DNA from: a virus
Virus record (IMG/VR): IMGVR_UViG_3300025647_000026
Location: 13,879 to 77,878 of that record
Length of the DNA: 64,000 nt
Strand: one strand, 5' to 3'
Within the stretch, counting starts at the first letter, position 1, and each line of letters begins with the position of its first letter. Below, piece by piece: positions 13,826 through 57,774 of the stretch. The notes under the pieces are model-generated. The model had not been told where the DNA came from. It did no database searches and saw nothing but the letters and a program-made list of their open reading frames with translations. The position numbers and the translations under genes were made by a program.

Positions 13826-14134
13826 TTAACTGTCAAACAAATTTTTAAAACAATGCCCGATATATCCTTTGTATTTAGTGTAGAAAGCCACAATTTCTTT
13901 TTGCATAAAATTGCCGTCATTAAATTTATTATCATCAAGCCCTATATGCGCTTTAGATAATAGTAAGTTCATTTCTTCGTGTATTTCTTTTTTAAACTGC
14001 CTCTCACGCTCTAGAATTTTCATTACAACAGTGATTACGTTTTCATCCTTTGCAAGAGAGTTAATAATTTCAGCTTTTACTACGTCATCAGGCAGCCCCG
14101 AATTGATAATTGATTTTAATTCTTGTAGGTTCAT
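13826..14134 (-). CDS. Hypothetical single-gene island
   Basis: Own TTTAATTAG-N19-TATTTTTG promoter, ATG 4 nt downstream. Confidence 0.65.
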   Translation of the reverse strand: MNLQELKSIINSGLPDDVVKAEIINSLAKDENVITVVMKILERERQFKKEIHEEMNLLLSKAHIGLDDNKFNDGNFMQKEIVAFYTKYKGYIGHCFKNLFDS

Positions 14135-33343: not shown

Positions 33344-33390
33344 TATTTACACTTCCTCTATTCGTTGTATAGTGATAACCAACCCAAAGT

Positions 33391-33476
33391 CAGTCAGAAC
33401 ATGATTCGAACATGTAAAAATATAGGTAGTTAACACGCCTCAACCCTATAACGTATACCACTTCCGCCACCTGACT
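33391..33476 (-). ncRNA. tRNA-like RNA with non-canonical extended anticodon arm
   Basis: Acceptor agtcagg/tctgact, D arm ggcggaagtggtatacg, T arm acatg-ttcgaat-catgt; middle arm tatagg-gttga-ggcgtg-ttaac-ta-cctata. Confidence 0.7.
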
Positions 33477-33975
33477 AATTATTTATCTACTCACTACTAC
33501 TCCATTATGAGTTAGCGTTACCTGACAAGGATTTTCTTTATCTTCTATTTTTTTGTGTCTACGTCTTAAACCTTTACAGTATTGAGAATAAGTCCATTGG
33601 GTATCGTTCTTTATGTTATAATCTTGCCAACTAAATATCTTCCCTTTAGGTTTGTTATTATTCATATCGTAAGCTATATCCTCCATATTAAAATAATACT
33701 GTTCAATAAAACTTGCTATCCCACCTACTTCACTTGATACCCAGTAATCAAATTCGTAACCTTGTTTCTTTACAAATTCGTCTACATAAGCGTTGCAAAT
33801 ACGATTATATTCGTTATTTAAAGTGATTATAGTTTCTTTGCGTGTCATTATTTAATGTATTTCATATCACAAAAGTATTAATTTAATTCATAATAACTAA
33901 TTAAATCTTTTTAATTAACAAATTATGTTTTATATTCTAAATGTCATGTTTAACCTTATCTTCTTACTATAATAC

Positions 33976-54580: not shown

Positions 54581-54730
54581 GATTATGAACTACTTAAAAA
54601 CACAACTAGCGCACCTAACACCAATAGTACTTCCACTAATAGGTTTATTTACATTATGGATAGGGTTACTATTAGTAGCAGTAGTAGCAATAAGGAATAA
54701 CGAAAGTTTAAAATAGCTAAATTAATAAAG

Positions 54731-54766
54731 TTTAATTAGGAATAAAGTAAACAAATGTTAGTTTTG
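54731..54766 (+). promoter_or_regulatory. TTTAATTAG-N19-TAGTTTTG promoter reading into cassette array
   Basis: Same motif and spacing as seven other sites in the window. Confidence 0.75.
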
Positions 54767-54770
54767 TTAC

Positions 54771-54856
54771 GCATAACGTTTTGCAGATAAGCGAAGGCAC
54801 AAATAGCGTTGGCATTGTGCGGTGGAATTTGGGCTTTTGCTTATGTGCTGTTATAA
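54771..54856. repeat. attC-like site 1
   Basis: GCATAAC-gtttt-gcagataagcgaaggcacaaat...atttgggcttttgcttatgtgc-t-GTTATAA. Confidence 0.8.
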
Positions 54857-54895
54857 CCAGTGCTTTTGATTAATTAACTTATAAAAAATAACAAT

Positions 54896-55171
54896 ATGGA
54901 ATACCAAAAATACATTGATTTAGGATTTGAAAGAACCGGTATGAGTTGTAAAGTCGAGTTTAAACAAACAGGCTATCACGGATTTGCTTTAGAGAAAAAA
55001 GTAAATAAAAAACAAATGGTTTGCGTAACGAGTGGCGAACTTGATAAACCCAAACTATACATCAAGAAAAGGAATAGCGAAACATATCACATCATACCAA
55101 TTTCAATAGAAGCGGTCATTGATTTGTTCAGCAAGTCCGAGAATGTTGATTATGTGACTACTGCTTGTTAG
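54896..55171 (+). CDS. Cassette-borne hypothetical protein
   Basis: Stop codon abuts cassette end repeat. Confidence 0.75.
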   Translation: MEYQKYIDLGFERTGMSCKVEFKQTGYHGFALEKKVNKKQMVCVTSGELDKPKLYIKKRNSETYHIIPISIEAVIDLFSKSENVDYVTTAC

Positions 55172-55177
55172 CATTGG

Positions 55178-55295
55178 TTATAACGTTTTGCAGATATGTG
55201 AAGTGTGGAGAGAGGCTGAATAATATAAACCGCACCACGCAGGTGAATAAGTTGGTGAAAATCCAATCACACATTTCATATATCTTTTGTTATGT
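55178..55295. repeat. attC-like site 2
   Basis: TTATAAC-gttttgc-agatatgtgaagtgtg...cacatttcatatatct-ttt-GTTATGT. Confidence 0.75.
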
Positions 55296-55310
55296 TCTCG
55301 TTTTAATGGA

Positions 55311-55405
55311 ATATAACGTATGGTGCTATGAGCAGGTTTGCCTTGCAGAAATGTTCAAGTTACCGAAAATGTTATTGGCAAACTTGCTTATAGCACGTGT
55401 TAGCA
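55311..55405. repeat. attC-like site 3
   Basis: ATATAAC-gtatg-gtgctatgagcaggtttgcc...ggcaaacttgcttatagcac-gt-GTTAGCA. Confidence 0.8.
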
Positions 55406-55495
55406 GTAGTACGGATTTAAACCACAAATGCTAAATCGAAGAACTAAACCTTTTTCTTTTCTTTTTTGAGCGAGGGCAAATATTAAAATAAAATT

Positions 55496-56479
55496 ATGAC
55501 AATAGATTTAAGATATGGAGATACAATAGAACAAATGAAATTGATACCTGATAAAAGTATTGACTTTATTTGCTGTGATTTACCTTACGGAACGACTGCT
55601 TGTGTTTGGGATATAATTATACCTTTTGATAAACTTTGGGAACAATACAAGCGAATTATTAAAGATAAAGGTGTAATTGTTTTATTTGGCTCAGAACCAT
55701 TTTCATCTTTATTGCGTACATCTAATTTAGATTGGTATAAATATGATTGGATTTGGGAAAAAAATAATGCAGGAAATTTTCAATTAGTAAATTACCAACC
55801 ATTGAAAATACACGAAACAATATCTGTATTTTATAATGAAACACCTAATATAGAATTTGCTAATATTATGATTGAAAATATGAAACGACTTAACTTGAAA
55901 CAAATTGATGTTTCTAAATTAGAACTTTCAAAAACAGGTGGAATGACAGGTTGGGTTACAAATAAAATGAATGGCTCACAATTACCAACTGAACATCAAT
56001 GGAATAAAATATGTGATTTATTTGGAATTGAAAATAAGCACAACGAAATACTTTCAACCGTAAAAAAGATTACCTATAATCTTGAACTTGATGATACTGA
56101 ATTGATTTTATCAAACAAAGGTAAAGCAGGAACACTTGGGCATTTATCAAGTGAAAGTAAAAGGGAAACATACATACAAGACAAAACAGGTTATCCAAAA
56201 AGTATATTGAGGTATAATAGGGAAAATGGACTACATCCAACGCAAAAACCTATACCATTGATGGAATTTTTGATAAAAACATACTCAAATGAGAATGAAA
56301 CTGTTTTAGATAACACGATGGGTAGTTGTTCAAGTGGAATTGCTTGTATAAATTTAAACCGAAACTTTATTGGAATAGATAATACCAAAAAGTATTTTAA
56401 TATTTCTTTAAAGAGGGTGGAAGAAAAAAGAAAAGAAAAATATTTTAACGTAGTAACTTCATTCGGAGATGGAATGTAG
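55496..56479 (+). CDS. Orphan N4-C/N6-A DNA methyltransferase (beta class) with inserted HTH, cassette-borne
   Basis: DLPY motif IV, HPTQKP, VLDNTMGSCS motif I; XRE-like HTH insert. Confidence 0.9.
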   Translation: MTIDLRYGDTIEQMKLIPDKSIDFICCDLPYGTTACVWDIIIPFDKLWEQYKRIIKDKGVIVLFGSEPFSSLLRTSNLDWYKYDWIWEKNNAGNFQLVNYQPLKIHETISVFYNETPNIEFANIMIENMKRLNLKQIDVSKLELSKTGGMTGWVTNKMNGSQLPTEHQWNKICDLFGIENKHNEILSTVKKITYNLELDDTELILSNKGKAGTLGHLSSESKRETYIQDKTGYPKSILRYNRENGLHPTQKPIPLMEFLIKTYSNENETVLDNTMGSCSSGIACINLNRNFIGIDNTKKYFNISLKRVEEKRKEKYFNVVTSFGDGM

Positions 56480-56521
56480 TATTACTGCTAACTACTCGAT
56501 TGGAGCAATAAATGTATAAGA

Positions 56522-56764
56522 ATGCAATATTTACAACATATAAACCTTGATACAATTATAATTATATATGCAGGTATTAAGAATACAAACTTAGTATTAA
56601 GTGATATTGGGCTTATAAATTATACTAATGGTAAAGTTTATAAAAAACAATTAAACAGTGGGTGTTATGGATATTTTATTGGGAGAAAATTTAAATCCGA
56701 AAGCAAATTAGATAAATACCCACTAACTAAAATTATTATAATAAAAGAAAAATTGCCGTTCTAA
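56522..56764 (+). CDS. Hypothetical protein
   Basis: ORF directly after array. Confidence 0.5.
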   Translation: MQYLQHINLDTIIIIYAGIKNTNLVLSDIGLINYTNGKVYKKQLNSGCYGYFIGRKFKSESKLDKYPLTKIIIIKEKLPF

Positions 56765-57234
56765 ACCACAATCGTAGTGTAATAAAAATTCTTTAAATCT
56801 ATCATACGTTCCTCGGAGCTATGGTAGATTTTTAGTTTAGTCTTATCCTCGTTAGTCCATATTCTTTCGCAGTCATGGCAAAGAATAAATCTATTTAACG
56901 GATGATGATACAAAGCACTATTAGCACTTCCTGCTATAATGTGGCTTACGTTCCTTCCACTAGGTTCTATTATTTCAACACCACAGTTCTCACATGGGCA
57001 TAATCCTTTACTTTCAGCTATATGTCGGGCAATCTCTTGAGCATAATAGTCTTTGTTAGCTACTATTCTCCCTTTCTGTTTATCACTTACCTTCTTAATA
57101 GCTTTTCTAGGCTTGTTTTTGGCTCTCTCTTGGGCTTTAAGGTAATATTCGGTACGTTTACATGTATCACAAGTTTTACTGCTTAAATGCGGTGTAAAAT
57201 CGTTTTGGCAATTGCTGCAAGTTTTTATTTTCAT
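56761..57234 (-). CDS. HNH/NinG-like Zn-finger nuclease
   Basis: CxxC pairs, SHII...N...LCHDC. Confidence 0.65.
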   Translation of the reverse strand: MKIKTCSNCQNDFTPHLSSKTCDTCKRTEYYLKAQERAKNKPRKAIKKVSDKQKGRIVANKDYYAQEIARHIAESKGLCPCENCGVEIIEPSGRNVSHIIAGSANSALYHHPLNRFILCHDCERIWTNEDKTKLKIYHSSEERMIDLKNFYYTTIVV

Positions 57235-57249
57235 AATGGTATAAAAAAA

Positions 57250-57774
57250 CTACCCTTGTGAGGTAGTTAGTTGTTTATATTCGTGAATAATATTAAGGGC
57301 TATGGTTCTTTCTTTAACATAATTCCTACCCTCCATAATGTTGTCCATTTTATGTAAAGCACTTATTATAGTAGTGTGGTGGAGTCCAGATTTAACTGAT
57401 TTTCTTTTAACCTTGTCAAACACAAGCCTTTCAAATACCATTCCTATTTCAGTTTGAGAGAGCAATGTTTCTTGGTTAAGAACATAAATAGCTATATGCC
57501 TCACTAATACAAGTTCATTCTTCCTGCTGTTCTGAATTATATGCTCTTTAGTTATATTAGTAATTATAAATATTGCTTTAAATATATTATCTATAACAGA
57601 GTTATTGTTAGTGTCAATACTAGCTTTTTTAACTACTTTCTTTTCCCAAATACTTTTGTAGTTATTGTAGTCAACCGCAAATTTTATCATATCTTCTTGG
57701 CAAAATATCTTTGCTTTATGTGTATAAGTTTTGTATGAGGGGTGTTGTTTTATAAAATATTCTTGTATTGTCAT
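57250..57774 (-). CDS. DnaA C-terminal (domain IV)-like DNA-binding protein
   Basis: SRKNELVLVRHIAIYV...SQTEIGMVF...HHTTIISA matches DnaA domain IV. Confidence 0.8.
   Translation of the reverse strand: MTIQEYFIKQHPSYKTYTHKAKIFCQEDMIKFAVDYNNYKSIWEKKVVKKASIDTNNNSVIDNIFKAIFIITNITKEHIIQNSRKNELVLVRHIAIYVLNQETLLSQTEIGMVFERLVFDKVKRKSVKSGLHHTTIISALHKMDNIMEGRNYVKERTIALNIIHEYKQLTTSQG

Follow-up and report, generated by a model that had tools for sequence, protein, structure and literature searches.

The question raised by positions 54774-56521 of the window (the whole 64,000-nucleotide stretch analyzed here, positions 13,879 to 77,878 of IMG/VR record IMGVR_UViG_3300025647_000026) is whether three hairpins and the small genes between them form a gene-capture array and, if so, to which recombination system such an array belongs. 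The source is a freshwater, Bacteroidota-type phage with a 77,878-bp genome rated 100% complete and a GC content of about 31%. An initial annotation had read the locus as an integron-like cassette array, inverted and placed behind a phage promoter, with integron integrase (IntI) as the expected enzyme. The patterns first noticed proved real and well in excess of chance, and indicate that 54774-56521 is very probably an orphan (recombinase-less) array of three cassettes. It would belong to a system of site-specific gene capture shared by Bacteroidota and their phages; the system is integron-like, not an integron. Comparison of sequences establishes the anatomy of the array, the exact breakpoints of exchange, the entry site, the inversion of the cassettes and the genomic linkage of such arrays to a recombinase family, and these are taken up in turn.

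Each cassette consists of a hairpin, GTT, an arm, cargo, a second arm complementary to the first (arm') and TAAC. The three hairpins lie where the initial annotation placed them, with feet at 54775-54852, 55182-55291 and 55315-55401, and all open with TAAC and close with GTTA. The DNA between them had been described as having self-complementary ends, and these were recovered as pairings of 9-14 nt: 54850-54863 with 55171-55184, 55289-55297 with 55309-55317, and 55399-55412 with 56479-56492, each of the three arm pairs containing a conserved T-G wobble on the + strand. All parts of the array are on the + strand. The first TAAC (54774-54777) is the left junction, the promoter-side half of the original entry site. 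Cassette 1 (54778-55184, 407 bp) carries hairpin 1, a TAAC-terminated arm' and an ORF (open reading frame) of 91 aa without family match (54896-55171); a near-copy of hairpin 1 occurs at 774-850 in the recombinase-linked array of a related contig, L148. Cassette 2 (55185-55317, 133 bp) has no ORF, and its arms form a mini-stem enclosing an 11-nt loop motif, TCGTTTTAATG, at 55298-55308. Cassette 3 (55318-56492, 1175 bp), again with a TAAC-terminated arm', holds a 327-aa N6/N4 DNA methyltransferase (55496-56479; Pfam PF01555, E 1e-23) that probably blocks host restriction. The next 29 nt (56493-56521), hairpin-less and conserved, separate this TAAC from the following start codon (ATG) and form the right half of an attI-like entry site; then comes a conserved ORF of 80 aa (56522-56764) occupying the place held by the recombinase gene in recombinase-bearing phages. 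The whole array sits at the extreme end of a rightward operon (about 37.6-56.8 kb) that meets a leftward gene block at about 56764. The family pattern was fitted at these three sites only in the entire 77.9-kb genome, i.e. there is a single array.

The initial annotation proposed that the cassettes are expressed from a phage promoter. A possible Bacteroidota-type -7 promoter box of the form TAnnTTTG lies at 54759-54766 (+), 8 nt ahead of the first TAAC, and a relative, L091, has the same kind of box in the equivalent position. The box fits a Bacteroidota promoter, although so short a motif is frequent by chance in AT-rich DNA and is weak evidence.

Folded as single-stranded DNA, the + strand was more stable than the - strand in all three hairpins because of G-T wobbles (-17.0 vs -9.8 kcal/mol for hairpin 1, -11.1 vs -8.9 for hairpin 2 and -16.4 vs -12.8 for hairpin 3), which agrees with the wobble pairs first noticed on that strand; + strand Z-scores against shuffles were -2.4, -0.4 and -3.0, respectively. 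Four to five bases are unpaired after AAC on the 5' arm and one to two before GTT. For the wider family, 79 viral contigs were gathered via the methyltransferase, and 84 sequences (921 kb) were scanned with a pattern of NAAC, 4-6 nt, a stem of at least 12 pairs, 0-2 nt and GTTN', symmetric for both strands. The gene strand gave 101 sites and the opposite strand 20, compared with 17 and 9 in shuffled sequence, with arrays of up to 10 sites and family hairpins of 47 to about 125 nt. Among 18 aligned homologues of hairpin 3, compensatory changes were found in 11 of 15 stem pairs, with TAACG and TGTTA invariant and several G.U-type positions conserved. The arms adjacent to the feet follow a consensus and pair across the gene rather than across the hairpin.

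Several observations concern the loops. Those of the hairpin at 55315-55401 and of hairpins of 118-125 nt in L008, L082, L192 and L196 are built from degenerate direct repeats of about 18-20 nt, one to three per loop, and further copies stand at 55413-55450, after the arm and ahead of the start codon. These oriented repeats could be binding sites for an accessory protein; DnaA-like boxes and an intra-loop promoter were weighed on visual inspection and not retained. The motif TCGTTTTAATG of cassette 2 recurs as a loop in L015, L009 and L011, on short hairpins of the family, and in attC1 of Polaribacter phage P12002L. It loops the shortest hairpins of the family atop differing, co-varying stems and is the sole content of the ORF-less cassette of the window. 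Elsewhere, in other metagenomes, the same loop replaces the tops of hairpin 1 and its relatives (a loose end at 54843 in run X8), and contigs of one public run showed a 33-nt skip within the top of hairpin 1.

Exchange of whole units is evident among nine Flavobacterium phage isolates of the genus Muminvirus, in which the array flanks are 99.7-100% identical and the arrays differ by whole cassettes. Five independent gain, loss or replacement events were distinguished: a one-gene indel, an exchange that brought in the methyltransferase unit seen in the window, an insertion of three genes, a single unit added at the hairpin-less right end, and the replacement of the last unit by a C5-methyltransferase unit. 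Every breakpoint fell directly after TAAC on the coding strand, either at the 5' foot of a hairpin or, in two of the five events, at the constant hairpin-less end, where the newest differences are located. The mobile unit is therefore a hairpin with its downstream gene and the TAAC that follows. Over all loci, 33 of 158 internal homology ends lay within 6 nt of a hairpin 5' AAC and 2 at a 3' GTT, where about 1 would be expected by chance, and TAAC occurred within 6 nt of 41% of homology ends vs 8% of random positions. Homology of the methyltransferase module to the window stops at 56491-56493, at the C of TAAC or within one base of it, in 15 contigs (a set including L001, L005, L006, L007, L022-L024, L032, L034, L035, L050, L063 and L076, with L006 contributing its right boundary only and L007 having a differing arm'). 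Breakpoints at the AAC/GTT triplet, predicted from the single sequence, were thus encountered both in the isolates and in these contigs. The methyltransferase gene retains its upstream hairpin lineage across contexts (L005, L008, L034, L105, L108), while the downstream hairpins all differ.

An explanation without any dedicated recombinase would be that these are simply conserved intergenic hairpins exchanged during co-infection by homologous or microhomology recombination between their feet, as has been proposed for promoter stem-loops of T4-type phages. The feet (TAACG and TGTTA) and basal stems are conserved enough to offer short homology, the phages have genes for general recombination and nuclease functions, namely an HNH/NinG-like protein, an SbcC-like ATPase and exonucleases, and phages without a recombinase exchange cassettes nonetheless; moreover, the Muminvirus gp008 indel, which has half a hairpin only, is flanked by two 7-bp direct repeats. 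This would not account for the concentration of breakpoints at one foot, 33 to 2, when both feet are equally conserved, for insertions at a hairpin-less site having only TAAC in common with the cassettes, for arms that remain complementary across each gene, or for the strict position and polarity of arrays relative to a tyrosine recombinase gene in the 47 viral loci described below, and we regard it as unlikely.

The window methyltransferase (55496-56479) contains an extra internal segment of about 65 aa when compared with the 84%-identical gene of isolate mymlan6-1 (L001, 3118-3906), which is annotated there as two ORFs (gp008 and gp007). Homology ends were also seen within methyltransferase genes, and represent ordinary mosaic recombination inside coding sequence.

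The locus of the window has its own record of replacement. Six different last cassettes, that of the window included, end in TAAC exactly 29 nt before the ATG of the conserved 80-aa ORF (the others are in L274; L275, the same as L091; L276; L277/L280; and L278/L279). Beyond L091, this ORF is shared by six further contigs. Since six differing cassettes abut one conserved stretch, 56492/56493 is an attI-like, hairpin-less entry site, as had been suggested for the right junction, and the Muminvirus newcomers at the equivalent end conform to this. L091, about 85% identical in both flanks and with the same right flank, has another array at this locus, 3.5 kb long and carrying four methyltransferases; left-flank homology to the window stops at 54581, upstream of the left junction. 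A contig from an unrelated lake metagenome, sampled in another study, tracks the window methyltransferase to 56492 and then enters a different family hairpin. Alignment of relatives, which the initial annotation had recommended, therefore yielded the anticipated differences in cassette content and did not yield the anticipated empty site: a pattern search with the right flank returned the L091 contig only. One contig, L092 (IMG/VR 3300042465_004839), has 7 bp in place of the whole segment 54607-56761 and was rejected as the precise empty site, as a 43-aa ORF and the 80-aa ORF are gone as well as the array.

As to the enzyme, the initial annotation had remarked that no IntI was present in the window, and the complete 77.9-kb genome contains no tyrosine recombinase (no match to PF00589), so that the array is an orphan. 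Among 30 array-bearing records, the array contig carried a tyrosine recombinase in two only, each right at the array end: L036 (286 aa, starting 54 nt past the last TAAC) and L148 (277 aa, starting 51 nt past it); a third match was on a different contig of the L105 genome. An alignment of the recombinase was used to scan viral contigs, retrieving 73 viral loci of which the 47 closest were analyzed, and metagenomes were found to hold a tight clade of relatives of 273-275 aa. At these 47 loci a compact recombinase (273-286 aa) lies just beyond the hairpin-less end, with 182 hairpins upstream of it on its own strand and 13 elsewhere (8 downstream, 5 on the other strand), and up to 16 per array. 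Spacing from TAAC to ATG was 51-52 nt in 12 loci, with related AT-rich sequence that the entry-site flank of the window resembles. The 80-aa ORF of the window thus stands past the hairpin-less end where L036, L148 and about 45 other viral loci have the recombinase.

The enzyme associated with such arrays is a compact Xer-like tyrosine recombinase, not IntI. The L036 and L148 proteins scored 143-157 bits against the integron integrase model TIGR02249, for which the cut-off is 265, with the match split in two pieces; their best scores were to archaeal XerA and to XerC/D, all below every curated cut-off. Nearest solved structures were XerA proteins, and IntI4 aligned over its N-terminal half only. 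A classical integron, in which the sites would be substrates of a host IntI, would be in keeping with feet that fit RYYYAAC...GTTRRRY boxes and with cassette ends complementary like those of integron cassettes. The extra unpaired bases of the phage hairpins are on the cleaved arm, whereas in canonical attC sites they are on the opposite arm, and the ORFs are inverted. Virulent phages carrying CALINs (clusters of attC sites lacking integron integrases) were listed by Qi et al. 2023 (PMC9892861), among them P12002L with two methyltransferases; its attC1, within the CALIN, is a member of the hairpin family of the window and was called as attC by HattCI, which favors integron identity, but it was called by HattCI only and missed by the covariance model, and of six sites it was the sole one not recombined by IntI1 (PMC9892861). 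On balance a classical integron is very unlikely, and the initial assignment to IntI, unlike the anatomy proposed with it, did not hold.

Counterparts of the phage arrays are found in chromosomes. A homologue of the recombinase at 33-43% identity was present in 163 of 301 sampled Bacteroidia genomes, although many of the 163 may be housekeeping Xer proteins; the tally includes one unpublished genome (G124) that is counted here only and is used for no locus or claim. Examination of the surroundings of 20 of the matches revealed nine loci in which family hairpins adjoin the recombinase, these hairpins being 123-126 nt long and 69-79% identical to phage hairpins. The initial annotation had looked to Bacteroidota genomes for the same cassettes in integrons: hairpin homologues do stand beside recombinases there, and those recombinases are homologous to the Xer-like phage enzyme. 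The closest matches to the methyltransferase in species-representative bacterial genomes are metagenome-assembled contigs with hairpin arrays of their own (L105, L108, L129). In many cases a contig breaks off about 100 nt from the chromosomal recombinase homologue, a pattern expected if repetitive arrays break short-read assemblies, and arrays are probably under-counted in draft genomes.

Orientation differs between the two settings. ORFs between chromosomal hairpins run opposite to the hairpin in 10 of 13 segments and on the same strand in 2, with a stop codon 17-22 nt from the GTT foot and the classical order of ORF, site and crossover, whereas in the viral loci 49 of 56 segments have the ORF on the same strand as the hairpin and 1 on the opposite strand. 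The phage cassettes are therefore inverted, which substantiates the early suspicion that both ORFs of the array lie backwards relative to ordinary cassettes. This finding also bears on the possibility that the hairpins act in RNA, whether to terminate transcription between cistrons, to direct processing or to stabilize transcripts, and mark module boundaries incidentally. That the sense strand folds better, with conserved G.U-compatible wobbles, and that the hairpins are in 5' untranslated regions would be consistent with such a role. The same folding strand is antisense to the genes in chromosomal arrays, such that the fold tracks the recombinase and the polarity of the entry site rather than transcription, which argues against it; no Rfam family was matched in the window at gathering thresholds, and single-nucleotide breakpoints and complementary cassette ends would be left unexplained. 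An RNA-level role is accordingly extremely unlikely. It is quite possible, although we stop short of favoring it, that Bacteroidota phages keep a mirror-image cassette pool, using the sites of host arrays with ORFs on the folding strand so that the array is read from a phage early promoter, and that many phages, the present one among them, have no recombinase and borrow it from a host array or a co-infecting phage. If so, the host machinery that stocks defence and immunity genes would also restock the anti-restriction arsenal of phages.

A mechanism for this site-specific gene-capture system can be drawn by analogy with integrons and with Xer-dependent single-strand integration. The + strand would fold, and a compact Xer-like tyrosine recombinase would exchange strands between TAA and C at the 5' foot of a hairpin. 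Each excised cassette would form a circle, with arm' and arm paired as a long stem that encloses the hairpin, and a circle would enter after the TAAC of a hairpin-less site with its conserved flank, here at 56492/56493. The phage cargo ORFs being on the folding strand, their transcription would start at a phage promoter at the opposite end of the array and run towards the entry site. For a phage without a recombinase, gain and loss would have to use an enzyme supplied in trans, from a host chromosomal array or a co-infecting phage. Cargo is mostly orphan DNA methyltransferases, and presumably serves anti-restriction. Single-strand transposons of the IS200/IS605 or REP kind, which are moved by an HUH (Y1) transposase and insert 3' of a fixed tetranucleotide, would likewise fit units with strand-specific hairpins, with a constant TAAC immediately 5' of the insertion point and with an element end that recreates the target. 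Such transposons are scarcely tenable here, as the gene at the array end is a tyrosine recombinase (HUH genes were not searched for), there is one hairpin per unit and not one per end, and the cassette ends are complementary to one another.

Some observations weigh against the reading of the locus as a site-specific cassette array. The evidence consists of sequence footprints and gene linkage, from which we infer recombination itself, and the link to the recombinase is one of gene position. The total energy of hairpin 2 is no better than that of shuffled sequence; its basal stem nevertheless has 17 pairs. Although the + strand was more stable in 53 of 56 elements, the elements had been chosen on that strand, which biases the test. 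Half-hairpin cassettes are exchanged too, namely the gp008 unit of mumin6-1 (L003, 4452-4957) and the first cassette of L091 (6469-7404), and the full fold may not be needed for every exchange. No tyrosine recombinase was found in the window genome, in four Muminvirus genomes or in P12002L. The search for circle junctions envisaged by the initial annotation showed neither a circle nor an excision joint across cassettes in contigs of four public runs (assembled contigs, not raw reads). The brevity of the candidate promoter motif and the possible housekeeping role of many chromosomal homologues belong with these points. The half-hairpin cassettes have just the 5' half of the hairpin, without the closing GTT foot, and their boundaries are still directly after TAAC.

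Cassette exchange of this kind would explain how virulent flavobacterial phages swap methyltransferases and small accessory genes between otherwise identical genomes, which is a route to rapid escape from restriction systems. With Muminvirus isolates and their Flavobacterium hosts in culture, and five cassette events already recorded among them, the system is directly testable. The inverted phage cassettes and orphan arrays raise questions about recombinases acting in trans and about the passage of genes between the arrays of hosts and those of phages. For the window, the practical result is that three cassettes are annotated with exact boundaries, together with an entry site at 56492.

Some neighboring genes may be mentioned. 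The 91-aa and 80-aa ORFs, the 43-aa ORF and one of 136 aa had no match in Pfam or PHROGs. The 80-aa ORF found no support as a recombinase remnant, and showed no significant homology to the ORF that follows the L036 recombinase (E 0.013) or to Muminvirus gp003 (E 9). Convergent with the array, at 56761-57234 (-), is a gene for a cysteine-rich 157-aa protein conserved in 12 related contigs, with a weak match to an HNH endonuclease PHROG (E 1e-5), which we take to resemble lambda NinG/Rap. Beyond it, 57250-57774 (-) encodes a protein with a DnaA C-terminal helix-turn-helix domain (PF08299), homologues of which are Muminvirus gp028 and a protein encoded beside the L148 recombinase. The single tRNA gene of the phage, tRNA-Ser (anticodon TGA), is at 33389-33477 (-).

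In comparison with known systems, a literature search recovered fragments only, and no full description of phage cassette arrays with an Xer-like recombinase. The nearest layout in print is rAID-1 of Bacteroidales, in which an XerD-like recombinase adjoins extended series of short, low-GC genes, all in one orientation, with intergenic repeats termed reminiscent of integrons, and which is carried by more than half of genomes (Ross et al. 2019, bioRxiv 10.1101/471110). That description includes no hairpins, crossover point, circles or phage copies (Ross et al. 2019). The Bacteroidia chromosomes of the present analysis have the same layout, with hairpins homologous to those of the phages. The array of the window likewise has two co-directional ORFs with repetitive intergenic sequences (its three related hairpins), although in a phage of about 31% GC the low-GC feature is uninformative. 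rAID-1 differs in being chromosomal, in stocking toxin-immunity genes and in having the recombinase 5' of the genes. The window cargo is a methyltransferase and a 91-aa ORF rather than orphan toxin-immunity genes, its ORFs are inverted relative to the sites, and its genome has no recombinase, whereas an rAID-1 cluster is recognized by an XerD-like one at its 5' end that shares 44% identity or more with the B. fragilis reference.

Two further systems share single elements of the pattern. Integrative mobile elements exploiting Xer (IMEX) of the CTX-phi type use a host Xer tyrosine recombinase in trans to integrate the folded single strand of integrase-less phage DNA. They differ in that whole phage genomes enter chromosomal dif; in the present arrays the shuffling is of individual genes, inside phage genomes and at dedicated sites. 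In virulent phages of the T4 type, the stem-loops of promoter-early stem-loop (PeSL) modules border small accessory genes of hyperplastic regions and delimit the modules, the shuffling of which is attributed to homologous recombination between near-identical promoter-containing repeats. The hairpins of the window family, in contrast, vary in sequence, with breakpoints at one nucleotide position and a linked recombinase gene.

The closest comparison is with integrons and CALINs. All have promoter-less cassette arrays with one strand-specific folding site per cassette, AAC/GTT boxes and a single crossover position, and in all of them circularization of a cassette would restore the site from its two ends. 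The newest cassettes are found at one end, next to a primary entry site that has no hairpin and, in complete versions, adjoins a tyrosine recombinase gene. The array of the window has single-position AAC/GTT boundaries with complementary ends, and boxes of the attC kind (TAAC...GTTA) in a geometry that departs from that of canonical attC. Its genome lacks IntI, and its ORFs do not precede their own attC and are not read away from attI; instead, the hairpin travels with the downstream gene. The recombinase of phage arrays is Xer-like, 273-286 aa, below the cut-off of the IntI model and without the IntI insertion. Phage hairpins have a bulge of 4-5 nt right after the cleaved AAC, paired outer boxes of 13-14 nt that are conserved in sequence, and loops with repeated motifs of about 18-20 nt, and phage ORFs are on the folding strand and read towards the entry site, with the recombinase gene co-directional with the cassettes. 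The array of the window has no recombinase gene about 51-52 nt past its end and otherwise shows the traits of phage arrays: TAACG/TGTTA feet with the 5' bulge, complementary arms, ORFs on the folding strand and a variable last cassette. Integrons are the textbook gene-capture platform, defined by IntI, and the Xer-like system would represent a parallel platform that follows the same logic and is common in the phages and chromosomes of Bacteroidota.

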